DNA of 64,000 bases from Candidatus Acidiferrales bacterium (GTDB lineage Bacteria; Patescibacteriota; Microgenomatia; Levybacterales; UBA12049), in assembly GCA_035533875.1 (NCBI GenBank), contig DATLSZ010000001.1:3614-67613 (forward strand), in the 5' to 3' direction. Below the pieces are notes generated by a model. It had not been told where the DNA came from, ran no database searches, and saw nothing but the letters and a program-made list of their open reading frames with translations. A program made the position numbers and the translations under genes. Below, piece after piece: positions 5,261-63,790 of the stretch (positions within the stretch are counted from its first letter, which is position 1; each line of letters opens with the position of its first letter).

Positions 5261-6481
5261 TTATTCGTATCTCAGTGCTTCAATCGGCTCAAGTCCGGCT
5301 GCTTTTTGTGCCGGATACCAGCCGAACAATACTCCGATTCCTGCCGAAACAACAAATGCAACCAGAACCGATTGCGGTGATAAGACAAAAGGAGAACTCG
5401 TTGCTGCAGAAATTCCATACGATAGAACAATTCCCAAAATTACTCCGATTATGCCGCCAGCGAAGGTAAGGATAATTGATTCTGTGAGAAATTGGGTAAT
5501 CACCGTCTTCTTCTTCGCGCCCAAAGCTTTCCTCAAACCAATTTCTCTTGTCCGTTCAGTGACGGTAACTAGCATGATATTCATAATGCCGATGCCGCCG
5601 ACAAGGAGTGAAATTGCAGCAATTCCTGACAGCAAGGTTGTAAACGTACCCGTAGCAGACGAAGCAGCATTCAAAATATCCTGCTGGGAAAAAATAGAAA
5701 AGTCTGCTTGCGTCGGATCAGAAAGTTTGTGCCTGCTCAACAATACATAACCGACTTGATTCTCGGCATCTGTCATCACGTCTTGGCTTTTTGCCTCAAG
5801 AGCAATTGAGTTAAGATACGATTGACCAAAGACTTGTGACTGTGCGGTAGTGAGCGGGATATAAGCGATGGCATCCTGATTGGCAAATCCGGTCCCGCCT
5901 TTGGAAACCGTTATGCCGACGATGCGGAATGAAATTCCTTTGATACGGATTGATTGTCCTATGGGGTCGGGATTATTTGGGAATAGATCGGATACGACAG
6001 TCGGTCCGATGACAGCAACTTTTGCCGCACCGTTATTATCTTGTTCTGTAATGAAATTGCCTGTCTGTATGGTAACTTTATGTACTTCAGAATATGTTGC
6101 TGTTGATCCTATTACTTGGATGTTACTATTGTTTCTCCCTGCGGTTACCTGTTCTCTCCCTTCTACCTCGGGAGAAACAGCTTGGATTGTCGTTATCTGC
6201 GGTGAAGTCTGGATTGCCTTTGCGTCGTCATTGGTAAGGGTTGTTGCGCCGCCGGCTGCACCACGAACGCCACCACTGCTTTGCGAGCCCGGACTCACGG
6301 TAAGTAAATTTGCACCCAGTGATTGTATCGAGTTTTGGACAGATTGCTGTGTCGCTTGTCCCAAAGAAACAAGCGCGATAACGCTGCCGATCCCGATGAC
6401 AATACCCAGAATTGCGAGACCGGTCCGCATCTTATTTACCGTTAATGTCTGTAGACTTTCAATAATTGTTTCTGTATCCAT
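5261..6481 (-). CDS. ABC transporter permease, MacB/FtsX type
   Basis: N-terminal TM, ~230-aa extracytoplasmic domain, C-terminal FtsX-like 3-TM bundle (GIGIMNIMLVTVTERTREIGLRKALGA). Confidence 0.9.
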   Translation of the reverse strand: MDTETIIESLQTLTVNKMRTGLAILGIVIGIGSVIALVSLGQATQQSVQNSIQSLGANLLTVSPGSQSSGGVRGAAGGATTLTNDDAKAIQTSPQITTIQAVSPEVEGREQVTAGRNNSNIQVIGSTATYSEVHKVTIQTGNFITEQDNNGAAKVAVIGPTVVSDLFPNNPDPIGQSIRIKGISFRIVGITVSKGGTGFANQDAIAYIPLTTAQSQVFGQSYLNSIALEAKSQDVMTDAENQVGYVLLSRHKLSDPTQADFSIFSQQDILNAASSATGTFTTLLSGIAAISLLVGGIGIMNIMLVTVTERTREIGLRKALGAKKKTVITQFLTESIILTFAGGIIGVILGIVLSYGISAATSSPFVLSPQSVLVAFVVSAGIGVLFGWYPAQKAAGLEPIEALRYE

Positions 6482-6482
6482 A

Positions 6483-6560
6483 GTTCGGAATACTCAGATA
6501 ACTCAGAATTTCAGAGTGTCTGACTTTCAGAATTTCTGAAGTTCTGATTACTCTGAGTTT
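6483..6560 (-). repeat. tandem-unit hairpin element, family 1 (CTCAGAA/TTCTGAG words)
   Basis: Arms 6492-6515 (ACTCAGATAACTCAGAATTTCAGA) and 6535-6558 match as an inverted repeat at 20 of 24 positions (hand count). The sense strand ends TTCCGAACT-ATG of the permease gene. Confidence 0.8.
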
Positions 6561-7257
6561 TTGCTTTTGTTGGATTTTTATTCTCTCGATCGCTCACAAT
6601 TTTCCCGTCTCGTACCGTAATAATACGTTTGGCATGCGCTGCTATATCCGGTTCATGAGTGATCATCACGACTGTATGGCCTTTTTCATTGATATCCTGA
6701 AAAATTGCCATCACTTCCTCGGCTTGTGCAGAAGCGATATTCCCCGTCGGCTCATCCGCAAGGAGCAGCGCGGGATCCATAGTAAGTCCTCGTGCGATCG
6801 CTACTCGCTGCTGCTGCCCGCCAGAGATTTGATTGGATGTATGATTGAGCCGTTCACTAAGCCCCACCATCTGCAGATATTTAACCGCGCGTTCATGCCG
6901 TTCTTCAAGTGGAATGCCCGCATACCGCATCGGTAACATAACGTTTTGCAAAACAGTAGTCCTAGGCAATAGATTAAATGCCTGAAAAATAAATCCAATT
7001 TTTTGGTTACGGATATCGGCCAACTCGTCATCTGTCAGATTTCCAACATTCTCTCCGTCAAGGATATACATCCCGCTTGACGGGGTATCCAAACATCCGA
7101 GTAGATGCATCAATGTCGATTTGCCGCTTCCTGAAGGGCCCATGATTGCGACAAATTCACCTTTCTTTATAGAAAATGAAACATCATCAAGTGCGACTGT
7201 CTCGCCCGCTGCGGTACTATAAATTTTGGTCAGATGTGATACGTCGATAATATTCAT
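6511..7257 (-). CDS. ABC transporter ATP-binding protein (MacB/LolD-like)
   Basis: Walker [10 protein letters not shown], signature [13 protein letters not shown], Walker B LLLADEPT. The last ~15 codons are encoded by the hairpin repeat at 6483-6560. Confidence 0.95.
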
Positions 7258-25195: not shown

Positions 25196-26066
25196 TAAAA
25201 TAGTGCTGGAAGAATTACACGAAGACAAATTAATAGACCTCGAAAAAAAGGCAGAAGAAGCCCGAGAGCTGATCATAAAATCGCTTCTTGAAGCAGGATC
25301 GGGACATTCAGCAGGTCCGCTTGGCATGGCGGATATCTTTACTGCGTTTTATTTTCATATTCTCAAACACGATCCCAAAAATCCCGATTGGCCTGAGCGC
25401 GACCGGCTGGTACTTTCCAACGGCCATATCTGCCCGATCCGCTATGTTTCAATGGCGCAGGCAGGCTACTTCCCTATTGAGGAATTGAAAACGTTACGGA
25501 AAATAAACTCAAGATTGCAAGGTCATCCGCACCGGACCGCTTTACCGGGACTCGAAACGACTTCCGGACCGCTCGGCGAAGGACTCGGACAGGCAATCGG
25601 CATCGCACTTGCAGCCAAACTTGATAAAAAAAACTATTATACCTATGTCATCACCGGTGATGGAGAGCTGGACGAAGGCAATATCTGGGAATCAGTGATG
25701 TTTGCCGGCAAAAATAAAATGAACAATATCATCATGACTATCGACCGCAACAATATCCAAATCGACGGTTTCACCGAAAATGTCATGCCGCTTGAACCGT
25801 TGAAAGAAAAGTTTGAGGCATTTGGCTGGCACGTTCTTGAAGTTGACGGCAACAATATCAAAGCATATGTTACCGTGATCAAGGAAGCGCACGCGATTTA
25901 TGAGAAACCAACGGTGATCATCGCCCATACCATCCCGGGACAGGGTGTTGATTTTATGGAAAAGGATTTCCATTGGCATGGCAAGCCGCCGAATGCGGAA
26001 GAAGCAAAAAAAGCGCTTGATGAATTACGCACGCTCAAGGGACAGATTGAGAGTGAACACAAATAA
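25191..26066 (+). CDS. transketolase, N-terminal (TPP-binding) subunit of split enzyme
   Basis: GSGHSAGPLGMADI, GPLGEGLGQAIG, GDGELDEGNIWE. In-frame GTG 25203, 7 nt after CATGAT, is an alternative leaderless start. Confidence 0.9.
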   Translation: MIKIVLEELHEDKLIDLEKKAEEARELIIKSLLEAGSGHSAGPLGMADIFTAFYFHILKHDPKNPDWPERDRLVLSNGHICPIRYVSMAQAGYFPIEELKTLRKINSRLQGHPHRTALPGLETTSGPLGEGLGQAIGIALAAKLDKKNYYTYVITGDGELDEGNIWESVMFAGKNKMNNIIMTIDRNNIQIDGFTENVMPLEPLKEKFEAFGWHVLEVDGNNIKAYVTVIKEAHAIYEKPTVIIAHTIPGQGVDFMEKDFHWHGKPPNAEEAKKALDELRTLKGQIESEHK

Positions 26067-26073
26067 AATATAA

Positions 26074-26174
26074 GCGGGTGGCACGGGCGGAGGGCTCCCA
26101 GCAGCGCGCAGTTCGTTCGCAGCAAAGCAAGACTAGAATGAGCACTGATGGGAGGAGCCCGGGACAGGACCCGC
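26074..26174 (+). other. GC-rich structured spacer between split transketolase genes (candidate RNA element)
   Basis: Outer stem GCGGGT (26074-26079)/ACCCGC (26169-26174); inner stem GGGCTCC (26092-26098)/GGAGCCC (26154-26160). Composition is strikingly GC-richer than the flanks. Confidence 0.35.
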
Positions 26175-26189
26175 AAAAACTAAAAAATT

Positions 26190-27179
26190 ATGTTGAATCC
26201 TAACTTAAAACTAAATACCAAACTCTTCGACAAAGATGTCGCAACCGCGCCAACTCGGGAAGGTTTTGGCACGGGACTCGTGGCGCTGGGTGAAATCAAT
26301 CCGAGAGTCGTAGCATTGGCCGCGGACCTGACTGAGTCAACATACGCACATAAATTTGCTGAGAAATTCCCCGATAGATTTTTCCAAATTGGTATCGGCG
26401 AGCAGAATATGGCATCAATCGCAGCAGGGCTTGCGGAAAGTGGTAAAGTCGCTTTCATCTCTTCATACGCAACGTTCTCACCGGGCAAAAATTGGGAAAC
26501 GCTGAGAACCACCGCAGTCTACAACGAAGCAAATGTCAAAATTGCAGGCCATCACTCAGGCATCATGACCGGACCTGACGGCGCCACCCATCAGGCAACA
26601 GAGGACATCGCCATCACCCGCTGCTGGCCAAAGATGCATGTCTATGTCCCTTGCGATGCTATCGAAGCACGCAAAGCAACCATCGCGTCTGTTGATATCT
26701 CCACCCCAGTCTATCTCCGCTATACCAGAGATAAAACACCAGTCATTACTACCGAAGAGACGCCATTCAAAGTCGGCAAACTGCAAACGTTTTGGGTGAA
26801 CGAAAATCCCAAAGTCACCATCTTTGCGACCGGCTACATGCTGTATTATGCACTCGTTGCCGCAAAAGAATTGGAGGAAGAAAAAATCCCTGTCCTCGTC
26901 GTCAACGCAGCGACGATAAAACCGCTTGATGAAGAAGGAATTCTTAACGCAACTCGTGATTCACAAGCAGTTGTTACGGTCGAAGACCATCAAGTCGAAG
27001 GCGGTATGGGATCTGCTATTGCTGAACTACTTGCAAAGACCACTCCACTTCCGATAGAATTTATAGGGTTGCAAAATACATTTGCCGAGTCAGGCAAGCC
27101 TGCCGAGCTTGTCGAAAAATACGGCATGGGAGTGAAAGATATCAAACTGGCTGTAAAAAGAGTTATGAGAAGAAAGTAA
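26190..27179 (+). CDS. transketolase, C-terminal (pyrimidine-binding) subunit of split enzyme
   Basis: FQIGIGEQNMASIAAGLA, GPDGATHQATEDIA, VTVEDHQVEGGMGSA. Confidence 0.9.
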   Translation: MLNPNLKLNTKLFDKDVATAPTREGFGTGLVALGEINPRVVALAADLTESTYAHKFAEKFPDRFFQIGIGEQNMASIAAGLAESGKVAFISSYATFSPGKNWETLRTTAVYNEANVKIAGHHSGIMTGPDGATHQATEDIAITRCWPKMHVYVPCDAIEARKATIASVDISTPVYLRYTRDKTPVITTEETPFKVGKLQTFWVNENPKVTIFATGYMLYYALVAAKELEEEKIPVLVVNAATIKPLDEEGILNATRDSQAVVTVEDHQVEGGMGSAIAELLAKTTPLPIEFIGLQNTFAESGKPAELVEKYGMGVKDIKLAVKRVMRRK

Positions 27180-27180
27180 A

Positions 27181-27268
27181 AATTTCAGAATACTCAGAAG
27201 ACTCAGACATCAGATAACCTGAATGTCAGACGTTCTGATTCTCCGAGTTATTCCGAGTTTTCCGAACT
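27181..27268 (+). repeat. tandem-unit hairpin element, family 1 (archetype)
   Basis: 5' arm TTCAGAA-T-ACTCAGAA-G-ACTCAGAC-A-TCAGA; 3' arm TCTGAT-TCTCCGAG-TTATTCCGAG-TTTTCCGAACT directly followed by ATG 27269. Confidence 0.85.
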
Positions 27269-28942
27269 ATGAATCCTGCCCTTTTAGAAGAACTGAAAAG
27301 TATCATACATGGTGATGTCGCGGTTGATGATGAGACGCTGATGAAGCATAGTCATGACGCGAGTCTTTTTGAAGTCAAACCGCAAGTCGTCGTCTACCCA
27401 AAAGACGAAGCAGATGTCCAGGCCCTCATCAAATTTGTCAGCAAACATAAAAAGGATCATCCCCACCTTTCACTTACCGGCCGTTCAGCAGGGACAGACA
27501 TGGGGGGCGGATCGATCAATGAGTCAATCATCGTTGACTTTATGAAATATTTCACCAAGATGGGTGAGATAAAAAATAACATCGGAACAGTAGAACCGGG
27601 AGTTTATTATCGTGATTTTGAAGCGGAAACACTCAAAAAGGATCTTATTTTTGCATCCTACCCTGCTTCACGAGAACTTTGTGCGATAGGAGGGATAGTC
27701 AACAATAATTCCGGCGGCGAGAAATCACTGATGTATGGCAAGACAGAAAATTTTGTCAAACGGACCAAAGTTGTTCTTTCAGACGGCAACACGTATGAAT
27801 TTACCCCTCTCAAACGCCATCAGCTCCGCGCTAAAATGGCAAAGGATGATTTTGAAGGCAGACTATACAAACGCATTTATAAGCTTGTTAAAAGAAATTA
27901 TGATGTACTCCAGAAAGCCAAACCAAAAGTCAGCAAAAATTCCGCCGGCTACTTCCTCTGGAATGTATGGGACAGGGAAAAAGATATTTTTGATATGAAC
28001 AAAGTCTGGGTCGGTGCACAGGGAACGCTTGGGATGATGCTTGAGGCAGATCTGGAACTCGTACCGGTACACAAACACCGTGAGATGGAGATCATCTTCC
28101 TGCATGATCTCACGCAGCTTGGACAAATTATCGATGCAGTGCTTCCGCTCAAACCGGAGAGTTTTGAAAGCTATGATGATAATACCCTCAAGCTCGCACT
28201 CCGCTTCTTCCCGGAATTTGCAAAGAAGCTTGGGCCCTTCGGATTAATCCAATCCGGATTGGCTTTCGCTCCCGCATTCATGAAAATGTTTGTCGGCAAA
28301 CTTCCCAAACTCATCCTGCAGATTGATTTCACCGGCAACGATCCAGAGGAACTCAAACAAAAAATCGCAGAACTGAGAGAAAAATTAAAACCCCTCCATC
28401 CTGAAACCAAAATCGCTATTGAAGATCAGGAGAAACGATACTGGCTGGTAAGACGGGAAAGCTTCAACCTGCTGCGGAACAAAATACGAGACAAACACAC
28501 TGCGCCGTTCATCGACGACTTTGTCATAAATCCTCATGATATCGGCGAGGTTCTCCCGCAGATTACTGACGTTGTCAGACGTTATCCGGAATTTATCTAT
28601 ACAGTTGCGGGGCATATCGGCGACGGCAACTTCCATATCATTCCGCTTGTTGATATCAACAATCCCGAAGTCCGTAAAGCAATTCCGCAGATATCTGATG
28701 AGGTTTATAAAATAATTTCAAAATATGGTGGTTCCATAACCGGTGAGCATAATGATGGTCTGATCCGCACGCCGTATCTCGAAGGAATGTACGGCAAAGA
28801 AATTATCAAACTCTTTGAGGAAACAAAAAACATCTTCGATCCGCAGGACATTTTCAACCCGCGAAAAAAAGTAAAAGGCAATCTCGCCTGGGCATTAGAC
28901 CACATCCGGACAAATTGGAATGTTATTCAAGTACCAAAATAA
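27269..28942 (+). CDS. FAD-linked oxidase (GlcD / D-lactate dehydrogenase-like)
   Basis: FAD_binding_4-type N-terminus (LTGRSAGTDMGGGS, GGIVNNNSGG) and C-terminal GSITGEHNDGL. Confidence 0.8.
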   Translation: MNPALLEELKSIIHGDVAVDDETLMKHSHDASLFEVKPQVVVYPKDEADVQALIKFVSKHKKDHPHLSLTGRSAGTDMGGGSINESIIVDFMKYFTKMGEIKNNIGTVEPGVYYRDFEAETLKKDLIFASYPASRELCAIGGIVNNNSGGEKSLMYGKTENFVKRTKVVLSDGNTYEFTPLKRHQLRAKMAKDDFEGRLYKRIYKLVKRNYDVLQKAKPKVSKNSAGYFLWNVWDREKDIFDMNKVWVGAQGTLGMMLEADLELVPVHKHREMEIIFLHDLTQLGQIIDAVLPLKPESFESYDDNTLKLALRFFPEFAKKLGPFGLIQSGLAFAPAFMKMFVGKLPKLILQIDFTGNDPEELKQKIAELREKLKPLHPETKIAIEDQEKRYWLVRRESFNLLRNKIRDKHTAPFIDDFVINPHDIGEVLPQITDVVRRYPEFIYTVAGHIGDGNFHIIPLVDINNPEVRKAIPQISDEVYKIISKYGGSITGEHNDGLIRTPYLEGMYGKEIIKLFEETKNIFDPQDIFNPRKKVKGNLAWALDHIRTNWNVIQVPK

Positions 28943-29685: not shown

Positions 29686-30732
29686 ATGGACACACAAGAT
29701 CTTGAAAAGACAGCCAAAGCAATGGTAGCATCCGGCAAGGGTCTTCTGGCAGCCGACGAAAGTGATAAGACCTGCCAAAAGCGGTTTGACAGTGTTGGTG
29801 TCGAATGCACGCAAGAGTCAAGGCGCGAATACCGTGGACTCCTCTTCACAACACCTGACGCCGAACAATTTTTAAGTGGTATTATTTTGTATGATGAAAC
29901 GTTTCATCAGGAAACTGACGATGGGCAGCCGTTTGGTGAATATCTCCAGTCAAAAGGCATCCTGCCGGGAATCAAAGTTGATAAAGGGCTTGTTGATCTT
30001 CCCGGATTTCCTGAGGAGAAAGTTTCTCAAGGTCTTGATGGACTGCCTGAGCGGATGGCAGAGTATGCCAAACTCGGCGCGAAATTTGCCAAATGGCGCT
30101 CGGTTATCACGATCGGCGATGGCATCCCCACTGATATATGCATTAAAGCCAACGCATACGTCTTAGCACGTTACGCACGCATCTGCCAGGATGTCGGGAT
30201 TGTTCCGATCGTTGAGCCGGAAGTACTCTTTGACGGCAAACATACCAGTGAACAATGCGAAGAAGTGATGGCAAAGACATTTGGTACGCTCTTTGAATAC
30301 ATGGAAGCATTTAGAGTCCACATGCCGGGAGCAGTTTTGAAAACAAGTATGGTGCTTCCCGGCAAAGAAAGCGGCGCAACGATTGAACACGATGAAGTTG
30401 CCGAACGGACCGTCAGAGTGCTGCATGACCATGTGCCACAAGACCTTGGCGGTGTGGTTTTCTTAAGCGGCGGACAGACCAGCAATGACGCGTTTATCAA
30501 TCTCAACCGCATTGCCAAAAAAGGTCCGCATCCATGGGGTGTCACCTTCTCTTTTTCACGAGCACTGCAGGATTCCGTACTCAAAGCCTGGGCGAAAGAT
30601 AGAAAAGATAAGAAAGGTACTCAGGATCTTTTCCGTCAGCAACTTGAATTCGTGGGAAATGCCAGCAAAGGAGAATTGGATGAATCTCAGCTCCACGGAG
30701 ATACCTTTGTCACCAAATCACAAGACCTCTGA
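29686..30732 (+). CDS. fba: fructose-bisphosphate aldolase, class I
   Basis: GKGLLAADES hallmark, GIKVDKG, Schiff-base region AVLKTSMV, FLSGGQ. Confidence 0.9.
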   Translation: MDTQDLEKTAKAMVASGKGLLAADESDKTCQKRFDSVGVECTQESRREYRGLLFTTPDAEQFLSGIILYDETFHQETDDGQPFGEYLQSKGILPGIKVDKGLVDLPGFPEEKVSQGLDGLPERMAEYAKLGAKFAKWRSVITIGDGIPTDICIKANAYVLARYARICQDVGIVPIVEPEVLFDGKHTSEQCEEVMAKTFGTLFEYMEAFRVHMPGAVLKTSMVLPGKESGATIEHDEVAERTVRVLHDHVPQDLGGVVFLSGGQTSNDAFINLNRIAKKGPHPWGVTFSFSRALQDSVLKAWAKDRKDKKGTQDLFRQQLEFVGNASKGELDESQLHGDTFVTKSQDL

Positions 30733-30856
30733 TCAGAACACTCAGATTGTCGGATAATCGGTAATTCTGAGGTTAAGTAAACAAACTCTGAATCTCTGAT
30801 CTATCTGGAATTCTGTTTTCTGATTTTCCGAGTATTCCGAGTCTTCTGAAGATATA
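30733..30856 (+). repeat. tandem-unit hairpin element, family 1, in a convergent gene gap
   Basis: TCAGAACACTCAGA ... CTCTGAATCTCTGAT ... TTCTGATTTTCCGAGTATTCCGAGTCTTCTGAAG; fills the aldolase-stop to pfkB-stop gap. The 5' arm is shorter than the 3' arm. Confidence 0.7.
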
Positions 30857-31831
30857 TTATTTAACGAGTTCTTCCATCTTACTCTTTGTCAAAAGTCCAG
30901 CTTGAGCGCCGATTTTTGAGACAACTGCTGTCGCGTTCCATGCTCCCCAATCCATCGCTTTGGGGATACTCAAGCCGGAATGTATTGCTGCGATGAACCC
31001 TGATGTATATGCATCCCCTGCACCGGTCCGCTCAACAACCTCGCCCTCATGAATTCCATGAACATAAAATTTACCGCTGCCATCCATCGCGTATGACCCT
31101 TTTTTCCCGTCAGTCACAATAACTATTTCAGGACCTAGCTTCTTCACATCCATCATCAACTCTTTCACATATGCTTCTTCATGCTGAGGCGTTTCGGTTT
31201 CATGAAGTAAGTATTCAGTTTCTTCCTTATTCAGAAAGAGCATGTGAGTATTTCTTAACACTTCATGGACGATATCTTTTCCAGCGCGTAACTGCCTGGA
31301 ACCCGGATTGAAGGCGATTTTTGCTTTACTCTTGCGGACAAATTCCAAGACAGTCCGATACGGCTTGCGCCATTCATTTCCTAGACTGGTCATATACACG
31401 ATATCCGCAGATACATCTTCAAAATGAAAGTCGTGTTCCCGATCCACGTTTTCAATAAAGAGAGTCCTGTCACCTTTAAAATTGATAATGACAGAAAAAT
31501 TAGACTGACCTTTGACTTGCGTAACGAGCACACGTTCGATATGTTCTGTTGCCAAGGTATTGCGGATTTTTAATGAGAACTCATCGTCTCCGATCTCGGC
31601 GCAGAGTGATGCTTTTAATCCCAACCGGGAAAGCCCCACCGCCACATTGGTAGCATTGCCGCCGATGGTAAAGTCATACCGCTCAACATCTATCTTCTCA
31701 CCGAATTTAAAACATAGCCCACCGGTCTCATTGTCAAGATGAGCATCAGCATTTGCATGTGCCAACGACATATAGGCGTCAATCGTTGATTCTCCTACAG
31801 TTATGACATTATAATGACGATTAGAATTCAT
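30857..31831 (-). CDS. PfkB-family carbohydrate kinase
   Basis: GGNATNVAVGLSRLG N-terminal motif and the TGAGDAYTSGF anion hole/catalytic motif. Confidence 0.85.
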   Translation of the reverse strand: MNSNRHYNVITVGESTIDAYMSLAHANADAHLDNETGGLCFKFGEKIDVERYDFTIGGNATNVAVGLSRLGLKASLCAEIGDDEFSLKIRNTLATEHIERVLVTQVKGQSNFSVIINFKGDRTLFIENVDREHDFHFEDVSADIVYMTSLGNEWRKPYRTVLEFVRKSKAKIAFNPGSRQLRAGKDIVHEVLRNTHMLFLNKEETEYLLHETETPQHEEAYVKELMMDVKKLGPEIVIVTDGKKGSYAMDGSGKFYVHGIHEGEVVERTGAGDAYTSGFIAAIHSGLSIPKAMDWGAWNATAVVSKIGAQAGLLTKSKMEELVK

Positions 31832-37892: not shown

Positions 37893-37960
37893 TTTCAGAA
37901 GACTCAGAAAACTCAGACGTCAGAAAATCTGGATTTCTGAATATTCCGAGTTTTCCGAAA
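37893..37960 (+). repeat. tandem-unit hairpin element, family 1, in a divergent promoter region
   Basis: TTCAGAAGACTCAGAAAACTCAGACGTCAGAAAATC-TGG-ATTTCTGAATATTCCGAGTTTTCCGAAA; shares GAGTTTTCCGAA with 27255-27266. Confidence 0.85.
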
Positions 37961-41185: not shown

Positions 41186-42568
41186 TTAGCCAAAGAACTT
41201 ATTAAAAAGTTCTTTTATTCCGCTTTCATGATTTTTCTTTTCTATATCTTTTGGAATAATACTTTGTAAATAATCTTCTTGTATCTCCCGAATTTTATTT
41301 TCTCCTAATTGTTGTAACGTTGCTGTTGCTTCATGGGATAGTTTCTTTAATACTTCATCGAACTTTGCGACATCATTATCAACCATAAACGCAGTTGCGT
41401 TAATTCCAAGAAGTCGAATACCTTCCAATGATTTTACGCGGGAAAGAGCAACATATCCCATGCCATATGCAAAAGATTTCGAAAGATCTATTTCTGCTGC
41501 ATCCAAACTCATACCTTGGCTTTTGTGTACGGTAATTGCCCAGGCAAGCCGGAGAGGAACTTGGCTTATTTCAGCAAGTACCGTTTCATTTTCCTCAAAT
41601 TTCCAGCTCGTAGGCATGGCAATAATTTCTTTTCCATCATATGTTTGTACAATTGGATTGCCGTCTGTATCAAACCCTTGTACTTTTCCAAGCGTACCAT
41701 TAATATATCCCTTAGCTGGATTATTCTTGATAAACATAACGAGAGCTCCTTCTTTTATCAATAATTCTTCAGGTGCAAGACAACCTTTTTTAAGTACATC
41801 AACTAGCTCTTTATTCCCTTGCGTTGTCATATGGTACTGATGGACAGGTTTGTCAATTTTTTCAAGCTCAAAATTATTAATGCCATCAACATCTGCATTA
41901 TGTGTATACAACTTAGTTGGAATTATATGCTCTAAGAATTCTTTGTTAAGTCGCGTTGAGAGTTTCTCAAAAGTGTATTCACTTACATCTTGAGAGCGTA
42001 TATCATTTAATACTTTGAGAAATGAATCATCCAACTGACGGTGCTGTTCATCCAAATAACAAACTGTTAAATCAAGCTCTTCCCATGCTTCAGATTTATA
42101 AGCAAAGCCTGATTTTTCTAGGCCTTGTTCATTTATAGGAGGTAATTGAAAAAAATCACCACAGAGAATTACTTGGAGACCGCCAAACGGGCGGTTATCT
42201 TGTCGTGCTAATTTACATATTTGATTCACCATATCGAGTCGATATGAGTGAAACATAGATATTTCATCTATAATGAGAACTTTTGCAGTCAGTAATTTTG
42301 CCCGTTTATTCTCATTGCCAAGAATTTTTGCTATATCATTGTGGGTTAAATGACTTTTAATACCAATACCGGACCAAGAATGTATTGTCCCGCCGTTTAA
42401 ATGGGTAGCGGCAATTCCTGTTGAAGCGGTTATTGCTACAGGAACTTTGTGTTTCTTTAAATAATTTATATAAAGGTTAAGGATGTATGTCTTGCCGCTT
42501 CCTGCTTGTCCGGTAAGGTATACGTTCTTCCCCATCATGAGAAGATTGAGTGCATCTTGTTGAGTCAT
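41186..42568 (-). CDS. Pif1/RecD-family SF1B DNA helicase
   Basis: Walker A GQAGSGKTY, VLIIDEISM, GDFFQLPP, TVHKSQGMSLD. Confidence 0.85.
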   Translation of the reverse strand: MTQQDALNLLMMGKNVYLTGQAGSGKTYILNLYINYLKKHKVPVAITASTGIAATHLNGGTIHSWSGIGIKSHLTHNDIAKILGNENKRAKLLTAKVLIIDEISMFHSYRLDMVNQICKLARQDNRPFGGLQVILCGDFFQLPPINEQGLEKSGFAYKSEAWEELDLTVCYLDEQHRQLDDSFLKVLNDIRSQDVSEYTFEKLSTRLNKEFLEHIIPTKLYTHNADVDGINNFELEKIDKPVHQYHMTTQGNKELVDVLKKGCLAPEELLIKEGALVMFIKNNPAKGYINGTLGKVQGFDTDGNPIVQTYDGKEIIAMPTSWKFEENETVLAEISQVPLRLAWAITVHKSQGMSLDAAEIDLSKSFAYGMGYVALSRVKSLEGIRLLGINATAFMVDNDVAKFDEVLKKLSHEATATLQQLGENKIREIQEDYLQSIIPKDIEKKNHESGIKELFNKFFG

Positions 42569-47523: not shown

Positions 47524-48204
47524 TCATTTCCCAAACCGTCTTTCTCTTCGCTCGTATTCCGCAAGCGCGTTGTCGAATTCTTTCTCATCAAAATCCGGCC
47601 AGAACGTATCGGTGAAATATAATTCGCTATAAACACTCTGCCATGGTAGATAACCGCTCAACCGTTGAGATCCACCGGTACGGATCACGAGATCCGGATC
47701 AGGCTGGTGCTTGGTGTATAAATACTGCGAAATCAATTCTTCCGTAATATCATTCTTATCGATCTTATCCGTAACAATTTGTTGCACGGCTTGCACGATC
47801 TCCTCCCTGCCTCCGTAGTTGAGCGCGATATTGACAGTGATCTTGGTATTGTCCTTGGATTCCTCAATAACCTTTGCTATCCCCTTTTGGATGTCTTCTG
47901 GAAAAGCTATAAGATTTCCCAGAACCTGGATCTTCCCGCCTTTTTTGATCAATTTTTTCAAGAGTCCTCCCCGCAGAGCAGTACGGAAAAGATCCATCAG
48001 ATAACCGACCTCTTTCTGATCCCTGCGCCAATTTTCCGTGGAGAACGCCCAGAACGTGATATACGGTATATCATGATCCTGCGCGCGCTGGACGATCTTT
48101 TCAATTTGCTGGTATCCTTTCCGATGTCCGGCAAAAGCCGGAAGTTTTTTCTCCCTCGCCCAGCGGCGATTTCCATCCATAATAAGAGCAATGTGATTTA
48201 TCAT
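47524..48204 (-). CDS. uppS: isoprenyl transferase (undecaprenyl diphosphate synthase)
   Basis: IALIMDGNRRWA, FSTENWRR, RTGGSQRLS(G/N). Confidence 0.95.
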   Translation of the reverse strand: MINHIALIMDGNRRWAREKKLPAFAGHRKGYQQIEKIVQRAQDHDIPYITFWAFSTENWRRDQKEVGYLMDLFRTALRGGLLKKLIKKGGKIQVLGNLIAFPEDIQKGIAKVIEESKDNTKITVNIALNYGGREEIVQAVQQIVTDKIDKNDITEELISQYLYTKHQPDPDLVIRTGGSQRLSGYLPWQSVYSELYFTDTFWPDFDEKEFDNALAEYERRERRFGK

Positions 48205-48292
48205 ATTAATCTAAAATCTCAAAAATCAAATGTCAAATCTACATCTCAAATATAAAATCTTTTAAAATTTTGAGATTTGCGATTTGAAATTG
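48205..48292 (-). repeat. tandem-unit hairpin element, family 2
   Basis: ATCTCAAA (48243-48250) pairs with TTTGAGAT (48270-48277), and TCAAATC (48232-48238) with GATTTGA (48281-48287). The sense strand ends GAGATTTTAGATTAAT-ATG of uppS. One arm encodes the idi C-terminal tail. Confidence 0.75.
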
Positions 48293-48804
48293 GAATTATT
48301 CTTTAATTCTTCCACTTGTTCCCTGCACCATTTCGAATACTTCCTCGGATTTTTCTTAATGCTTTTCTGAAACTCTTCCCAATCAACCCATTCATATTCC
48401 TCAACTTCTTCCGGATTTGGACGGGGTTCTTTTGACACTGTCGCGATATAGACCGGACAAATTTCGTTTTCAACTATACCATTCATCTTTGCAGTATAGC
48501 GGAAATTCGGCAGGATAAGTTTTATTTTTTTGGGTTGTAAACCGAGTTCAAGTTGCAATCTTCGCTGTATCGCATCTTCGGTCTTTTCACCCGGCCCAGG
48601 ATGTCCACAACAGCTGTTGGTCCATATTCCCGGAAACACTTTTTTACTCAGTGCCCTTTGGGTCAGGAGAAACTTGCCCTCTTTATTAAATACATACACC
48701 GAAAAAGCCCGATGCAGCGGCGTATGCGCAGTATGTGCTTCAAGCTTCGGCATCGTACCGATTTCTTCATTGTTATCATTCACGAGTACAACCAATTCTT
48801 CCAT
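48262..48804 (-). CDS. idi: isopentenyl-diphosphate delta-isomerase, type 1 (Nudix)
   Basis: HRAFSVYVFN, WTNSCCGHP, ENEICPVY. The last ~10 codons are encoded by the hairpin repeat. Confidence 0.9.
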   Translation of the reverse strand: MEELVVLVNDNNEEIGTMPKLEAHTAHTPLHRAFSVYVFNKEGKFLLTQRALSKKVFPGIWTNSCCGHPGPGEKTEDAIQRRLQLELGLQPKKIKLILPNFRYTAKMNGIVENEICPVYIATVSKEPRPNPEEVEEYEWVDWEEFQKSIKKNPRKYSKWCREQVEELKNNSNFKSQISKF

Positions 48805-48805
48805 A

Positions 48806-49783
48806 TTAAAATAAATGCTTTTTTATCAAATGTGCGCCCTTACTCGGATAATTAATAATCGTGTTTTGTACTTCCTCCATTTCTGAAAGCTTCTTTACAA
48901 CTTTTTTCGCATTCTTTTTTTCACAAATAATATGGACGTCTTGTCCAGTATTGAGAGTAAAATAAACTTCCAACCCTTCTTGCCGCCATTTTTTTACCAG
49001 ATGTAACAAACGCAAACTCGCTGGCAATAAATAGATAAGTGAAGGTTGAGATGTAAGATAAATCGCATGTAATTCAAGTGCCTCAGCTTCTATAACGTTT
49101 CCAAAAGCGGTGAAATTTTTTTCTTTTATATATCGCTTAACCAGACGCATTTTTTCTTTATTAAGTTGCAATCTTCTGTCAAAAAATAGACTCGTTGTTG
49201 CAAGTTTATGTCCCTCTGTAGAACTGATTTCTTTTTTATTGGTACTGACAACCGCAACAACGTCGATAATATCCCAATGATCTTTTGGGTATAACGAAAC
49301 AGCATATGAAGTCTCACTCGTATCGCCATCAAGCCACTCAACAAATCCGTCGGGAATTGATCTGCAAGCAGAACCTGAACCCTGTCTTGCCAGAATCGAT
49401 AATTCTTTTTCTGAAAGTTTCAAACCCGCCGCTGCGGCAGCAGCAACTGTTAATGCTGCAAATCCAGACGCAGAAGATGAAAGACCCGTTGAAGTAGGAA
49501 AATTATTTTTAGAAATAACTTTTGCTTTATACTGTATTTTTGTTAAAGAACGTATTCTATCCAAATGCTTAATGACTCTATTCCCTTCGATTATTTCTTG
49601 AACATTATTAACGGTAATGCTATCTTGATAAAAATCTGAATTAAATTCAACCGTTGTTGTCGTAAGAAGATTACTTAAATTCATTGAAATACTCCCGTTT
49701 TTAGGAAGTCGTAAAACCTCATCTTTGACTCCCCAATATTTGATAAACGCGATATTTGATGGTGCGACTGCTGTAGCTTTCAT
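48806..49783 (-). CDS. mvaD: diphosphomevalonate decarboxylase
   Basis: NIAFIKYWG, GLSSSASGFAAL, GSGSACRS. Confidence 0.9.
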   Translation of the reverse strand: MKATAVAPSNIAFIKYWGVKDEVLRLPKNGSISMNLSNLLTTTTVEFNSDFYQDSITVNNVQEIIEGNRVIKHLDRIRSLTKIQYKAKVISKNNFPTSTGLSSSASGFAALTVAAAAAAGLKLSEKELSILARQGSGSACRSIPDGFVEWLDGDTSETSYAVSLYPKDHWDIIDVVAVVSTNKKEISSTEGHKLATTSLFFDRRLQLNKEKMRLVKRYIKEKNFTAFGNVIEAEALELHAIYLTSQPSLIYLLPASLRLLHLVKKWRQEGLEVYFTLNTGQDVHIICEKKNAKKVVKKLSEMEEVQNTIINYPSKGAHLIKKHLF

Positions 49784-49785
49784 AG

Positions 49786-50769
49786 TTATTGTAAACTCTT
49801 TTCTACACGGACTCCTTCCGCATTTGTCTTGACAGCAATCACTTCACCACCGGCAACAGTAATTGCTTTTTCAACATCCTTTTTCTTTTCTCTTAGCGCA
49901 AGTGCAATCATGCAGTCTCCTCCGCCGGCGCCTGACAATTTTGCACCGTATGCTCCTGCACTTCGCGCGGCATAATTCATCGCCGCCAATGTCTCGGTCT
50001 CTACGCCATAAGCGCTCAATAATCCTTCATTGATATTCATCAACTCACCAAACTTCTCAAAATCTCCAGCGATTAATGCTTTCTTTCCTGTCTCAACACA
50101 TGTCGTACTGACGTCAAAAAGAACAGGATAAATTTTGGGATATTCTTTTAACTTTGCTCCTACCATCTTGACGAGTGTCGGTGTATCACCTTTGCTCCCG
50201 CTATATCCAACAATGAGCGGAAAATTCGCAACAGAAATAGGGGTAATTACTTTTCCTCCACCAACAAAATATAAAATACCTCCATAAATTCCCGCAGCGA
50301 TATCAAACCCGGACCCAACACCTTGAATATCTATAACTGTTTTGTATGCAAGATTAAATAACGATTTGTTATCCAATTTACTCCCGGTTAACTCTGAAAG
50401 AGCTTTCACCATACAGACTGTCGATGCAGATGAAGATCCGAAACCTACTTGTGAAGAAAACGCTGATGACGTCTCGACTCGCAAGCCGCCTTTGAATTGG
50501 TATTTTTTCAGAAAATTTTTAACAGCTATCTCGACAAATTTCGCACCTTTCGGGATCTCTCCTTTACCGAGATCCTTCAAACTTTTTTTATACCCAATCA
50601 CCTTTACACCGGGCGCCTCCAACTGCAATTCCGGGACATCCAAACGGGTAACAGTCGCTTCCATCCGCTGATCAACTGCGGTCACGAGACACGGTCTGTT
50701 ATGCACAACAGCATGATCCCCCAAAAGCATCAATTTCCCCGGTGCTGATACAGTTATTTTTTTCATCAA
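49786..50769 (-). CDS. GHMP kinase, probable phosphomevalonate kinase
   Basis: SAPGKLMLLGDHAVV, GFGSSSAS, KLSGAGGGDC. The second GHMP kinase in a mevalonate operon that lacks an isopentenyl-phosphate kinase. Confidence 0.65.
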   Translation of the reverse strand: MMKKITVSAPGKLMLLGDHAVVHNRPCLVTAVDQRMEATVTRLDVPELQLEAPGVKVIGYKKSLKDLGKGEIPKGAKFVEIAVKNFLKKYQFKGGLRVETSSAFSSQVGFGSSSASTVCMVKALSELTGSKLDNKSLFNLAYKTVIDIQGVGSGFDIAAGIYGGILYFVGGGKVITPISVANFPLIVGYSGSKGDTPTLVKMVGAKLKEYPKIYPVLFDVSTTCVETGKKALIAGDFEKFGELMNINEGLLSAYGVETETLAAMNYAARSAGAYGAKLSGAGGGDCMIALALREKKKDVEKAITVAGGEVIAVKTNAEGVRVEKSLQ

Positions 50770-51806
50770 TTTAACATCACTCCTTCACTTCCCAGCATAA
50801 TATCATACAATGGGTTTTTATTTAATAATAAACTTTTTTTCAGTTTTTCTTTCTCAGGATGATAGACAAGAAGCATTCCTGATCCTTTTTTCCTTCCTCC
50901 TGCACCACAGATCTTTGCAGCCCCTCCTTCTTTTTCAATCAGTGCAATGAGCGATTTTGCCGAATCCGAAACAACGCCTATTTTTTCGAGATTTCGCTCT
51001 CCTCTTTTGATTAGATCCATAAGATTCTCTTCATTACTGTTTTGTAAAACCGAAACCAAATCTCGGGTTACTTGTTCCTGATCAGAAAGAAACTGCGCAA
51101 ACATGCTCCTGTTCTCTTTTTGCAATCTCCCGACAAGACTTACCATTTCACCGGTAGTTTCAGTTGGTCTGCCGCTGTCTATCAATAAAAAATTTGCCTT
51201 TGATTGTAACAATTTTTTGGTAAAAGATTTATTTTGAAAAAGCCCAATGCCTCCATAACAACAAATGGTATTATCTCCTCCTGAAGGGTTTCCATGGATT
51301 CGCTGTTCGATTCGAAAAGCGATGGTGTTAACCGTTTCTTTATCAATCTTTTTCGTAACAAACTGCATTACAGCTGCAACAATAGCTACCGATAGTGCTG
51401 CCGAAGAACCGAGCCCTGATCCGATAGGGATCGCTGAATTGATTATAAGATCAAACTCGGATGGTAGTCTTTTTTGTAAAAAAGCGATCGTTTCTCCTAT
51501 TGCAATTGCAGGCAAATCTACACTATGTAACGTCAATAATGAGCTGTCGTTATTCTTTTGAAATGCATCCCATTTTTTCTCCGCCTCTTTGGTAAGAGCA
51601 ATAATTTCATTGGGAGAATATGTCATTTTTTTATTGAGATTTTCTGAGGTGATAGTGATAGTGTCACTATCTGAAGAGATCAACTGTACAGAGCATCGCA
51701 TGTTAATCGCTGCGAGAAGAGCCGGTTTGCCGTAGACCACCGCATGCTCACCCATCAAATGAATTTTTCCCGGGGCAGAAACAGTTATGCTATTCTGCTT
51801 TTTCAT
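50766..51806 (-). CDS. mvk: mevalonate kinase (GHMP family)
   Basis: SAPGKIHLMGEHAVVYGKPALLAAI, GSGLGSSAA, KICGAGG. Overlaps both neighbours by 4 nt. Confidence 0.75.
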   Translation of the reverse strand: MKKQNSITVSAPGKIHLMGEHAVVYGKPALLAAINMRCSVQLISSDSDTITITSENLNKKMTYSPNEIIALTKEAEKKWDAFQKNNDSSLLTLHSVDLPAIAIGETIAFLQKRLPSEFDLIINSAIPIGSGLGSSAALSVAIVAAVMQFVTKKIDKETVNTIAFRIEQRIHGNPSGGDNTICCYGGIGLFQNKSFTKKLLQSKANFLLIDSGRPTETTGEMVSLVGRLQKENRSMFAQFLSDQEQVTRDLVSVLQNSNEENLMDLIKRGERNLEKIGVVSDSAKSLIALIEKEGGAAKICGAGGRKKGSGMLLVYHPEKEKLKKSLLLNKNPLYDIMLGSEGVMLN

Positions 51807-52102
51807 ACCGGTTTTACTTTTACGCCATACGTGATTATATCTTCTTTACCGGGAAATCCGACTCGACGTATGACAGTAATTACTTTTTGACCGACCGTTA
51901 ATTGCTCTTCATCGTAATCAACCAGCTGGAGTGTTCTCTTTTCTTTATCATCAAATGCAACTATTGCTACGACATAGGGAACTTGCTGTTGGAATCCTGC
52001 CGGTGCAACATAAATTCTCGTCCAGACCACTATTTTTCCAACTCTTCCAAGTTCTTTATGTAATTCTTTTGTTTTTCTCCAAGATGCAATTGTATTTGTC
52101 AT
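51803..52102 (-). CDS. DUF35-like OB-fold protein lacking the zinc ribbon
   Basis: 99 aa, position between thiolase and kinase, OB-like core VPYVVAIVAFDD...QKVITV; contains no cysteine. Confidence 0.6.
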   Translation of the reverse strand: MTNTIASWRKTKELHKELGRVGKIVVWTRIYVAPAGFQQQVPYVVAIVAFDDKEKRTLQLVDYDEEQLTVGQKVITVIRRVGFPGKEDIITYGVKVKPV

Positions 52103-52106
52103 AAAT

Positions 52107-53246
52107 TTAAACCTTTAATATATGGACGACTGCAGTCGCTCCGGTTCCACCGATATTCTGCGTCAGACCGACCTTTGCTTTCGTAACTTGTTTCTTCCCA
52201 CCGCGACCAAGCAATTGATCATAAATCTCAACCAATTGTTTGACTCCTGTAGCTCCAACCGGATGGCCGCATGCCTTCAGACCGCCTGATGTATTCACCG
52301 GCTTTTTTCCGCCAAGTCGTGTCGCCCCGCTGGCAACATATGCTCCGCCTTCACCTTTTTTGCAGAATCCCAGATCTTCCATCGCCAGTAATTCGGCAAT
52401 CGTGAAACAATCATGCACTTCCATAATGTCTATATCTTTTGGTGATACTCCTGCAAGAGAAAACGCTTTTTTCGCTGCATTTTTTGTCGCAGCAAGTTCG
52501 GTCAGACTTGCCCGGTCGGAAATAGCAATGGTATCGGTGACAACCGTGCTTGCGATAATTGAGACTTTCTTCTTTGATGAACTTTTTTTGGCAGTCAATA
52601 CGAGTGCCGCCGCGCCGTCTGTTATCGGTGACGAATCAAGAAGGGTGAACGGATCGGTCACTTTGGAACTATTCAAAACTTTTTCAATGGATACTTCAAA
52701 AGGAAATTGCGCTTTACTATTGAGACTTGCATGATAATGATTCTTTACCGCGACGTGTGCCATATGTTCCCGCGTCGTACCAAACTCCTGCATGTGTGCT
52801 TTCGCAAGTAGCGCATAGAGCGCCGGAAATGTCAGACCTGCTTCTCGCTCTTCTTCAGATCCTGCACGCATGAGAAGCGAGCTGATTTCCTCCGGCGGAA
52901 AATCCGTCATCTTTTCGACACCTACAACAAGAACTGTTTCATAGGTACCGGCAAGAAGTGATTGAATTGCCAGATGCACTGCCAGTCCACCGGATGCGCA
53001 TGCGCCTTCGATCTTAAATGCACTTTTATTAATCCCCAGTGCCGATGTAACTGCCGCGCCCAAATGTTCTTGTCTCTGCAAGGTGCCGGAAAGCATATTG
53101 CCGACAAAAACTCCTTCAATATCTTTCAGAGAAACAGCAGCATCTTTTATGGCTTCAGATGCGGCATCGGTCGCAAGATCGATAAGTGTTTTTGTCCAAT
53201 GTTCACCAAATTTTGTTACCGCAGCGCCTGCTATGTGTACATTCAT
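52107..53246 (-). CDS. thiolase (archaeal-type acetyl-CoA acetyltransferase)
   Basis: Active-site EGACASGG, VHDCF, GGLKACGHPVGATG. Confidence 0.85.
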   Translation of the reverse strand: MNVHIAGAAVTKFGEHWTKTLIDLATDAASEAIKDAAVSLKDIEGVFVGNMLSGTLQRQEHLGAAVTSALGINKSAFKIEGACASGGLAVHLAIQSLLAGTYETVLVVGVEKMTDFPPEEISSLLMRAGSEEEREAGLTFPALYALLAKAHMQEFGTTREHMAHVAVKNHYHASLNSKAQFPFEVSIEKVLNSSKVTDPFTLLDSSPITDGAAALVLTAKKSSSKKKVSIIASTVVTDTIAISDRASLTELAATKNAAKKAFSLAGVSPKDIDIMEVHDCFTIAELLAMEDLGFCKKGEGGAYVASGATRLGGKKPVNTSGGLKACGHPVGATGVKQLVEIYDQLLGRGGKKQVTKAKVGLTQNIGGTGATAVVHILKV

Positions 53247-54274: not shown

Positions 54275-54349
54275 AAAATTTGGATTTAAGATTTAAGAAA
54301 TAAGATTTAAGATTTTTTACTCTTTAATCCTAAATCTTTAATCGTAAAT
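54275..54349 (-). repeat. tandem-unit hairpin element, family 3 (GATTTAAGA/TCTTAAATC words)
   Basis: GGATTTAAGATTTAAGAAATAAGATTTAAGATT-TTTTA-CTCTTTAATCCTAAATCTTTAATCGTAAATC; fills the HMGR-stop to HMGS-start spacer. Confidence 0.7.
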
Positions 54350-61635: not shown

Positions 61636-61733
61636 ACTATTCCCGGAAAACTCAGAACGCTCAGAGAACCAGAATATCTGAAATTCAAATTATCAGATAT
61701 TCTTTATACTCCGAATTTTCTGAGTGTTCCAAA
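61636..61733 (-). repeat. tandem-unit hairpin element, family 1
   Basis: GGAAAACTCAGAACGCTCAGAGAACCAGAATATCTGA...TCAGATATTCTTTATACTCCGAATTTTCTGAGTGTTCC; fills the ybaB-stop to prs-start spacer. Confidence 0.8.
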
Positions 61734-63650: not shown

Positions 63651-63790
63651 AATTCAGAAAACTCAGTATAATCAGAATGCCGGAAAATCAGTATACCAGA
63701 AATTCGGAATATCAGAAAAGATATTTTCCGGTTCACTGGCTCTCTGAATTTCCGGATCTCTGAGTTTTCCGAGTTTTCTGAAATCACTAC
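63651..63790 (-). repeat. tandem-unit hairpin element, family 1 (longest copy)
   Basis: About 65-nt arms of TCAGAA/TCGGAA words and their complements. The sense strand ends GAGTTTTCTGAATT-ATG of dnaX and begins right after the ybeY stop. Confidence 0.8.

Follow-up and report, generated by a model that had tools for sequence, protein, structure and literature searches.

A modular palindromic repeat in an intercistronic spacer of Microgenomates: a probable selfish element resembling the Rickettsia palindromic elements

The closest described counterparts of the repeat treated here are the Rickettsia palindromic elements RPE-1 to RPE-10 (Ogata et al. 2000, 2002), as summarised in PMC10969869. The repeat fills the 89-nt spacer (27180-27268) between tktC and a FAD-linked oxidase gene in a stretch of 64,000 nt of contig DATLSZ010000001.1, the whole of which is called the window below. 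The spacer is probably a copy of a non-autonomous, selfish palindromic repeat family of Microgenomates, RPE-like in kind. The RPEs (PMC10969869) and the present family are alike in being palindromic repeats of ~100-150 nt in small compact genomes, in having intergenic copies plus frequent in-frame copies that add peptide to unrelated housekeeping genes, and in that a mobilising enzyme is known for neither. The hosts differ, being Alphaproteobacteria (Rickettsia) for the RPEs and Microgenomates of the candidate phyla radiation (CPR) for the present family, and the likeness drawn here is one of architecture, no sequence relationship between the two being known. RPE families have a fixed consensus, whereas the present family is modular, comprising a variable number of 8-9-nt words over 64-173 nt, with a word design that leaves the 5' arm open in three frames and the 3' arm in two of three. 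AT-rich TCNGA words are not known to be a feature of the RPEs. Until now, the RPEs have stood out as the main case of selfish palindromes lying routinely inside bacterial protein-coding genes. The present family is apparently a second, independent system of the same kind, and a much more widespread one.

Several other systems are comparable in part. Repetitive extragenic palindromic (REP) sequences and bacterial interspersed mosaic elements (BIMEs) are likewise multi-copy hairpins in intra-operon spacers without target-site duplication, and with the REP-associated tyrosine transposases (RAYT; IS200/IS605-like Y1) they provide a precedent for mobilisation through single-stranded hairpins. REPs, however, are 20-40 nt long, GC-rich, headed by GT(A/G)G and strictly extragenic, whereas members of the present family are 3-5 times longer, AT-rich, start with TTCRGAA and are ~40% genic. 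Correia elements (NEMIS) and ERIC/IRU sequences are co-transcribed with flanking genes, form long RNA hairpins from their terminal inverted repeats, are cut by RNase III or RNase E and alter the expression of their neighbours (PMC10969869); they offer a model for what copies at gene junctions could do. They have a defined target-site duplication (TA for Correia), fixed internal sequences and are rarely in frame, whereas no duplication was found in the present family. Mobile hairpins of organelles include the GC clusters of yeast mtDNA, byps, fungal double-hairpin elements and the repetitive hairpins of sponges (PMC2800124). These too are small selfish palindromes invading spacers and coding regions of compact genomes, in other hosts and with other sequences; the ribosome bypasses byps, but genic copies of the present family are open in the host frame.

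The preliminary description of the spacer did not recognise it as a described element, and the searches agree. Rfam gave 0 matches at gathering thresholds over the whole window and, at permissive E-values over 26000-27320, only chance-level ones (E of at least 2, e.g. a plant miRNA hairpin with E = 2.1). A full-text literature search found no description of palindromic elements or transposable elements of the miniature inverted-repeat type (MITEs) in CPR, Patescibacteria or Microgenomates. The family is apparently undescribed so far.

Copies in the window and word structure

The spacer copy (copy A, 27184..27266, + strand) is an 83-nt palindrome that begins 4 nt past the tktC stop codon (TAA, 27177-27179) and stops 2 nt short of ATG 27269. 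Its arms begin with TTCAGAA (27184-27190) and end with TTCCGAA (27260-27266), after which come CT and the ATG. The words read TTCAGAA-TA-CTCAGAA-GA-CTCAGAC... in the 5' arm and ...TCTCCGAG-TTA-TTCCGAG-TT-TTCCGAA in the 3' arm, in agreement with the initial account of the spacer as one imperfect palindrome. Copy A folds at -25.8 kcal/mol on the + strand and -37.2 kcal/mol on the - strand (z = -3.7 and -6.2). A consensus scan of 27180-27268 found neither promoter nor terminator. An intrinsic terminator was rejected on account of the AT-rich stem, the CT-ATG tail without a U-run and the location within an operon. A CRISPR array was rejected as well, the words abutting at 8-9-nt spacing with the halves inverted; no CRISPR-like spacers had been seen at the outset either.

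Five further copies had been proposed, and together with copy A their loci are the sole 120-nt intervals of the 64 kb with at least eight TCNGA-type pentamers. Against an expectation of 0.11, the two-word pattern YTCNGARNNYTCNGAR is found 11 times, each time within the six loci. The shared strings pointed out earlier are present, TTCCGAACTATG at 27260-27271 (+) and 6479-6490 (-) and GAGTTTTCCGAA at 27255-27266 and 37948-37959. A profile hidden Markov model of the arms, trained solely on 128 arms of copies from other genomes, matches both arms of all six window copies (E from 1e-9 to 0.0024) and, across the whole 64-kb window, nothing at E < 1 outside the six elements. As this foreign profile finds exactly these 12 arms, the six copies can be taken as genuine members of a family defined elsewhere and as the full set of the window. 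Folding of both strands, which had been proposed as a check, gives long hairpins for all six copies; in five of them z lies between -3.6 and -8.8 on both strands, and the fold of copy C is weaker (z = -2.3 and -2.8). Between 0 and 3 of the six frames are open in the window copies, mostly 0 or 1. The contig, hairpins included, is 99.95-100% identical across three independent metagenome assemblies, and the hairpins are therefore not an assembly artefact. The soils in which the contig is present are those of JGI 3300031672, SRR8554485 and SRR5487326.

The five other copies differ in their settings. Copy B (6484..6557, -) lies between an ABC-ATPase gene and a MacB/FtsX permease gene (ATG 6481, - strand) and ends ...TATTCCGAA-CT-ATG; the open reading frame (ORF) of the ABC-ATPase (6511-7257, -) enters its 5' arm, the last ~17 residues and the stop codon (6511-6562, -) being element-encoded. 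Copy C (30733..30850, +) touches no start codon and sits between convergent stops, namely the TGA of a class-I fructose-bisphosphate (FBP) aldolase gene (30730-30732) and the TAA of a pfkB-kinase gene (30857-30859, -). Copy D (37894..37959, +) occupies the divergent region between msrB (start 37842, -) and a class A penicillin-binding protein (PBP) gene (ATG 38000), where it is bracketed by two -10 boxes of leaderless type (TGCTACAAT and TGCTACTAT), lies 40 nt upstream of ATG 38000 and touches neither start nor stop codon. Copy E (61640..61733, -) fills the spacer from ybaB (stop 61734-61736) to prs (ATG 61635), with a GGAGGA Shine-Dalgarno sequence within the 3' end of ybaB just 5' of the hairpin base. 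Copy F (63653..63783, -) fills the spacer from ybeY (stop 63792-63794) to dnaX (ATG 63650), starting 8 nt past the ybeY stop and ending 2 nt short of the dnaX ATG.

Across the family the unit is TC-N-GA-R. Purine-centred words, e.g. CTCAGAA and CTCGGAA, make up the 5' arm and their pyrimidine-centred complements, TTCTGAG and TTCCGAG, the 3' arm; A(C/T) usually precedes a word. Over 42 copies the word-to-word spacing is 8 nt in 171 cases and 9 nt in 174, outer words tending to 9-nt spacing and inner words to 8 nt. The period of about 9 nt first proposed is thus only part of the picture, the 8-nt spacing being equally frequent family-wide. Element length ranges from 64 to 173 nt (median 120), with a median minimum free energy of -46 kcal/mol (39 copies). 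Copies from different genomes share the ends (T)TCRGAAAACTCRGAA ... GAGTNTTCYGA(A), and conservation of the ~16-nt termini extends over several candidate phyla. In having inverted conserved ends (TCRGAAAACTCRGAA / GAGTNTTCYGA), small size and no internal ORF the elements are like MITEs, from which they depart in showing no target-site duplication.

The TCNGA core is its own reverse complement except for the centre, each word being a 7-bp near-palindrome; both strands are therefore alike, and orientation is defined only by A-C versus G-T mismatches. The observation that five copies point the same way as the adjoining gene consequently has little content, as the palindrome reads purine-5'/pyrimidine-3' on either strand. 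The A-C pairs reported for copy A (A27187/C27263 and others) are real, being the unpaired centres of opposed words, but they do not support a functional antisense transcript. Nor does the suggestion of G-U wobbles in such a transcript hold: opposed word centres are A:T in 73 cases, A:C in 32, G:T in 34 and G:C in 12 and are independent of each other (chi-square p = 0.73), and intergenic copies display no strand bias. The better-folding strand is antisense for copies A, B and D and sense for copies E and F. Chimeric hairpins, which pair the 5' arm of one copy with a 3' arm taken from a different genome, reach -0.400 kcal/mol per nt versus -0.381 for native ones. Since chimeras fold as well as native copies, the capacity to form a hairpin resides in the shared word vocabulary and is not due to single copies or to compensatory evolution. 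Centre-pair counts and chimeric folds revealed no arm-to-arm compensatory covariation, and the same tests gave no evidence of selection on the hairpin itself.

Distribution across genomes and orthologous sites

The spread of the family was surveyed in two scans, from both of which host range and copy numbers are minimum values. The first, with a pattern of three words over 185,579 species genomes, returned at least 119 matches, most of them 9-nt coding repeats of high-GC bacteria; many Prevotella/Bacteroidales genomes are among the matches. Among the matches listed, two-armed hairpins are confined to metagenome-assembled genomes (MAGs) of Microgenomates, labelled Levyi-, Collier-, Chisholm- and Daviesbacteria or simply "Microgenomates", and a one-armed copy is present in a Patescibacteria MAG. 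The second scan, with a tighter pattern on a metagenome collection, gave at least ~38 hairpin-type matches on contigs of 37-60% G+C. Seven of these are direct tandem arrays, which leaves ~31 true hairpins (37-50% G+C). Spread by phage was considered and rejected, a scan of viral contigs having given only one-armed matches of the tandem coding type and zero hairpin copies.

Two further classes of metagenome match, on contigs L128, L143, L151, L218, L204, L206 and L173 and on L130, L137, L159, L163, L165, L171, L186, L188 and L239, consist of direct, non-inverted tandem arrays of GAGTATTCT-type words and of 40-56-nt hairpins of four words on contigs of 51-56% G+C. At four other loci (L132:1320-1510, L145:1250-1460, L230:110-300 and L233:2655-2860) a different word, ACGAATA / TATTCGT, stands in inverted orientation on either side of the hairpin, which suggests composite palindromes from two vocabularies.

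The nearest relatives of the window at both the DNA and the protein level are labelled Levyibacteriota, which are part of the Microgenomates group, or Patescibacteria. Proteins identical to those encoded at 27269-28942 and 60658-61635 bear the NCBI label "Candidatus Acidoferrales bacterium", and relatives at 82-85% identity the label "Saccharimonadales". These labels probably come from mis-binned or mislabelled MAGs, because both the gene content and the closest relatives at the DNA level indicate Levyibacteriota/Microgenomates.

Comparison of five window sites (A, C, D, E and F) with their orthologous sites shows that four of the five copies are absent in close relatives whose flanking proteins are 75-88% identical. 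At site A (tktC/FAD oxidase) the 89 nt of the window, element included, are replaced by 4 nt and 9 nt in two relatives with 88% protein identity; two other relatives carry unrelated sequences there. Site C (aldolase/pfkB, convergent) is 124 nt long in the window, and in L244 the two stops are 1 nt apart with both C-termini (…KSQDL*, …VK*) unchanged. Site D (divergent promoters), which holds the element in the window, is a 41-nt region in L245 with both -10 boxes and no element. Site E (ybaB/prs) spans 98 nt in the window and 1, 3, 9 and 9 nt in four relatives, all of which keep the GGAGGAAAATAA gene end (GG(A/C)GG(A/G)AAATAA). Site F (ybeY/dnaX) is filled in the window and also in the Levyibacteriota MAG L021, where the outer words are conserved and a 31-nt apical indel is found; L277 and L278 have remnants of 51-59 nt ending ...CTGAGTATTCCGAATT-ATG, and L279-L281 are empty, with 2-14 nt. 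Zero copies were found in 3 x 21.7 kb from three relatives. Copies of one genome are more alike than copies at the corresponding site of different genomes: the two copies in L228 are 81% identical and both 164 nt long, against 54-60% identity and differing length for copies at the same sites of leucyl-tRNA synthetase (LeuRS) genes elsewhere. Gain, persistence and decay together make up the course expected of a mobile or recombining repeat.

In the two site F remnants (L277:2687-2745 and L278:3046-3096) the second-last word and an extended -10-like box (TGCTACACT / TGATACACT) overlap 14 nt upstream of the dnaX ATG. Window copy F has TATACT at the same place (63666-63671 in + coordinates, read on the - strand). 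TANNNT is part of canonical 3'-arm words, GTATTCTGAG for example, and some copies might donate promoters.

In-frame copies and gene junctions

The preliminary description saw no coding potential in the element, which is wrong for the family as a whole, copies being found in frame in the genes for LeuRS, NrdJ, NusG, UvrA and others. A Chisholmbacteria MAG has an element inside LeuRS, a Collierbacteria MAG has two inside class II ribonucleotide reductase (NrdJ), and a Daviesbacteria MAG has one in the N-terminal part of NusG. Aligned to T. maritima NrdJ (1xjk), the NrdJ protein breaks exactly at both elements, its residues 297-343 and 502-554 having no counterpart in 1xjk. The encoded insert peptides are alike (SSENSEYSESRNIRKSESQKAGSSDSPILRYSDFSGSQSFPSVLER; ISENSENSESRKIRKSDNQTTRNSGSLKLRSSDLSDVPSFPSVLER; PSEYSEDSEDLKVRRSEDQKVGGSDSPNLRLSGSLSNPSFPRLK) and rich in Ser, Glu, Asn, Gln and Lys, e.g. 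SENSENSE...SFPSVLE. Among the metagenome matches listed, 14 of ~38 copies (~40%) span long ORFs with at least 40 codons per side. Host genes there encode UvrA, DnaX, Mur ligases, LepA, RadA, two intein-containing proteins, a DUF2298 membrane protein and LeuRS.

Two of these in-frame copies (L162:9077-9168 and L193:7586-7710) directly follow an intein N-terminal splice motif (CVTGDT…) in ORFs of 2150 and 2270 aa. LeuRS genes at L042:2443-5820, L228:2444-5812 and L199:367-3444 have extra low-complexity in-frame inserts (EVQKVQKVQEVQEV, GDKGNKGDKGDEG, TRGTRGTRGT, SMEGMES, HPELVSGS…DPEFTEGQ), which are probably further word-repeat or palindromic families. Two LeuRS loops, after …GKSWF and after …VWRM, hold copies of the present family in some genomes and other inserts in others.

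All three reading phases are used, giving SENSENSE, QKTQNTQ or LGKLGK. The 5'-arm words (TCA-GAA, CAG-AAA, AGA-AAA) are stop-free in every phase; the 3' arm is closed in a single phase, xTC-TGA, and there only by a T centre, a C centre opening it. Frame compatibility is thus due to words without stop codons and not to phase. A strict period of 9 nt, or three codons, was considered as its cause and is only half right, the 8-nt spacing being equally common. On the sense strand of genic copies 49% of 3'-arm words are C-centred against 20% G-centred words in the 5' arm (Fisher p = 2e-5), an excess that is partly circular because the copies were chosen for open frames; intergenic copies are symmetric, with 29% C-centred in the 3' arm and 31% G-centred in the 5' arm. 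In genic copies a 3'-arm C gives Arg instead of stop and Pro instead of Leu. The Pro/Leu comparison is not circular and yields CCG:CTG (Pro:Leu) at 17:9 in genic copies versus C:T at 28:70 in intergenic ones (p = 0.001). In the synonymous Ser phase the C/T ratio of genic copies equals the intergenic ratio. With this protein-level excess of C in the sense 3' arm, the mRNA-sense hairpin of genic copies is weaker than the antisense one, which is so in 16 of 19 genic copies (p = 0.004) versus 11 of 23 intergenic copies. Genic copies appear to be translated and under protein-level selection. No intergenic copy examined splits two halves of one gene.

Junction copies of many genomes start 0-11 nt from the upstream stop codon and, in most cases, end 1-6 nt from the downstream ATG; one of them lies between the genes for ribosomal proteins S3 and L16 in the ribosomal operon. 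The two distances sum to the 1-14-nt length of the spacers at empty sites. The element thus occupies a very short gap between genes, contact with the start codon being one side only of this arrangement. The early emphasis on copies that end at start codons concerned a by-product: the upstream stop is equally close, and copies C and D touch no start.

Upstream of copy A, tktC (26190..27179, +) encodes the C-terminal subunit of transketolase (Pfam Transket_pyr and Transketolase_C), and downstream of it lies the FAD-linked oxidase gene (27269..28942, +; Pfam). ATG 27269 can be regarded as the true start of the oxidase, because homologues of the same length start at the same residue: they measure 550-559 aa at 99-100% coverage, and the N-termini line up in relatives L243-L245. 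None of 240 fetched homologues of the FAD oxidase and Prs has an element insert. It is true, as first noted, that ATG 27269 has no Shine-Dalgarno sequence, but this is not special, as only 1 of 15 window genes called by the Joint Genome Institute (JGI) has one. A TANNNT box lies 6-10 nt before the start in 7 of the 15 called genes, versus a background of 10%, and is preceded by TGC in 5 of the 7 (extended -10); gene starts of this type include 22472, 25128(-), 31831(-), 33516, 35012, 37842(-) and 38000. The genome looks largely leaderless and Shine-Dalgarno-poor, so that the missing Shine-Dalgarno sequence would not set element-flanked genes apart. Operon genes elsewhere in the window overlap by 4 nt (e.g. 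49783/49786 and 50766/50769).

Origin of the element, its tolerance and surrounding features

The element would spread as selfish DNA through a process that leaves no target-site duplication, for which hairpin- or single-stranded DNA-based (HUH/Y1-like) transposition and recombination are candidates. In compact genomes the surviving insertions would be those that keep the host ORF open or land in gene gaps of 1-14 nt. Between genes only gap insertions would survive, which would be why the window copies extend from a stop codon to just short of the next ATG. Of the four roles offered in the preliminary description, that of a REP-like selfish repeat is the one favoured, in an RPE form that includes in-frame copies.

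Several observations weigh against a selfish repeat. The window copies are heterogeneous, with ~62% pairwise identity and no sign of a recent burst. As had already been noted for the locus, transposase and target-site duplication are missing: Pfam detects no transposase among the ~60 window ORFs, including none of RAYT or IS200-IS605 type, and no duplication was found by inspection of the flanks of 33 copies or at filled versus empty sites. Neither a longer parent element nor an insertion sequence sharing the ends of the element turned up in the window or in the fetched loci. With neither parent nor transposase, mobility is deduced only from presence and absence at orthologous sites and from the multi-copy distribution, and the host range depends on the matches listed in two scans, which are lower bounds. 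That site F is filled in two species, and the same LeuRS loops in different lineages, could also reflect selective retention or insertion hot spots.

A functional intercistronic RNA element, acting as a processing or stability site (e.g. an RNase III target) or as a translational gate for internal cistrons, would accord with the very stable hairpins, with a geometry of stop, element, 2-6 nt and ATG that recurs in many genomes, S3-L16 included, and with the persistence of site F in two species. A 5'-proximal AUG would moreover be translatable in a largely leaderless genome, and the Correia elements of Neisseria are RNase III substrates (PMC10969869). Such a function is nevertheless unlikely to account for the spacer. 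Four of the five compared sites are empty in relatives, where the spacers are 1-9 nt long or, at site D, a 41-nt promoter region, and the same element is also found in frame within genes, between two stop codons that converge and in a region of divergent promoters. Intergenic copies lack strand asymmetry, the opposed centres are independent, chimeric hairpins fold like native ones, and no Rfam family matches; the processing or gating role proposed earlier has thus gained no positive evidence. A further alternative is a double-stranded DNA array of protein-binding sites, in which YTC-N-GAR heptamers every 8-9 bp would serve as operator-like sites for a dimeric regulator or nucleoid protein. Each word is indeed a 7-bp near-palindrome with a free centre, regularly arrayed, but copies lie inside ORFs of unrelated housekeeping genes and the same spacers are empty in relatives; mixed 8/9-bp spacing loses helical phase, and the order of purine-centred words 5' and pyrimidine-centred words 3' suits a hairpin and not identical operators. 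This explanation is very improbable.

Hardly more credit can be given to a non-mobile origin, in which local slippage with inverted duplication, as in minisatellites, or decay of Ser/Glu-rich coding sequence produced the elements and their likeness arose by convergence. Such an origin would fit the varying number of words and length (64-173 nt), the 8-9-nt tandem structure, the missing target-site duplication and transposase, and the direct, non-hairpin arrays of the same words in other metagenome contigs. It is opposed by termini of ~16 nt conserved across several candidate phyla with foreign-profile E-values down to 1e-9, by clean filled versus empty sites with the flanking gene ends intact, and by window copies that are stop-laden and palindromic, unlike decayed coding sequence.

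For a selfish repeat at gene junctions, tolerance by the host has to be considered. A hairpin between an upstream signal (Shine-Dalgarno sequence or stop codon) and the AUG can draw the two close or be melted by the upstream ribosome, as in the split ribosome-binding site of T4 gene 38 and in translational coupling through hairpin melting. The geometry of copies A, E and F matches these cases, and the analogy concerns tolerance only. In a transcribed junction the hairpin would loop out, leaving the upstream stop codon or Shine-Dalgarno sequence ~6-13 unpaired nt from the AUG. With copy A looped out, stop and start would be 4 + 2 unpaired nt apart, and with copy E looped out the conserved GGAGGA of the ybaB end would stand ~13 nt from the AUG. 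A ribosome terminating upstream would then melt the hairpin base and free the AUG, so that translational coupling would be preserved. Looping-out together with coupling may explain why junction copies are tolerated, though this is put forward tentatively, at somewhat less than even odds. It is improbable that junction copies have been recruited as a general device of operon expression by which internal cistrons are translated, either through cleavage at the base to give an mRNA starting 2-6 nt before the AUG or through a shunt of 70S ribosomes from stop to AUG. If it is true that junction copies affect coupling or processing, this would bear on operon translation in leaderless, Shine-Dalgarno-poor bacteria.

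The modular word design shows how palindromic DNA can suit reading frames, and the many host genes, lineages and filled versus empty sites are material for studying mobilisation and tolerance. Within CPR genomics, the elements lengthen housekeeping proteins by 30-55 residues of low-complexity segments, can mislead gene callers at gene ends, as at the ABC-ATPase tail in copy B, and create long spacers in otherwise tightly packed operons.

The gene content of the window is ordinary and chromosomal, including a split transketolase, a class-I aldolase, a class A PBP, Prs, YbaB, DnaX, a mevalonate operon and cysteinyl-tRNA synthetase (CysRS); tRNA and tmRNA genes are absent from the window. The mevalonate cluster (47524-55495, -) looks complete, with HMG-CoA reductase and synthase, thiolase, GHMP kinases, diphosphomevalonate decarboxylase and undecaprenyl-diphosphate synthase. 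A gene for a PIF1-like helicase is located at 41186-42568 (-). The tktN-tktC spacer (26067-26189) carries a second, GC-rich repeat family of ~105-120 nt, laid out as …CGGGTGGCA…GGAGGG…CAGCGCGCAGT…GCACTGATGGGAGGA…GACAGGACCCGCA…A/T-rich-ATG, for which Rfam gave no match (only narK, E = 2.9). A homologue of this second repeat fills a different spacer, tktC-FAD oxidase, in a relative (L245:9901-10000), and GC-rich words related to it are present at L243:17810-18044.

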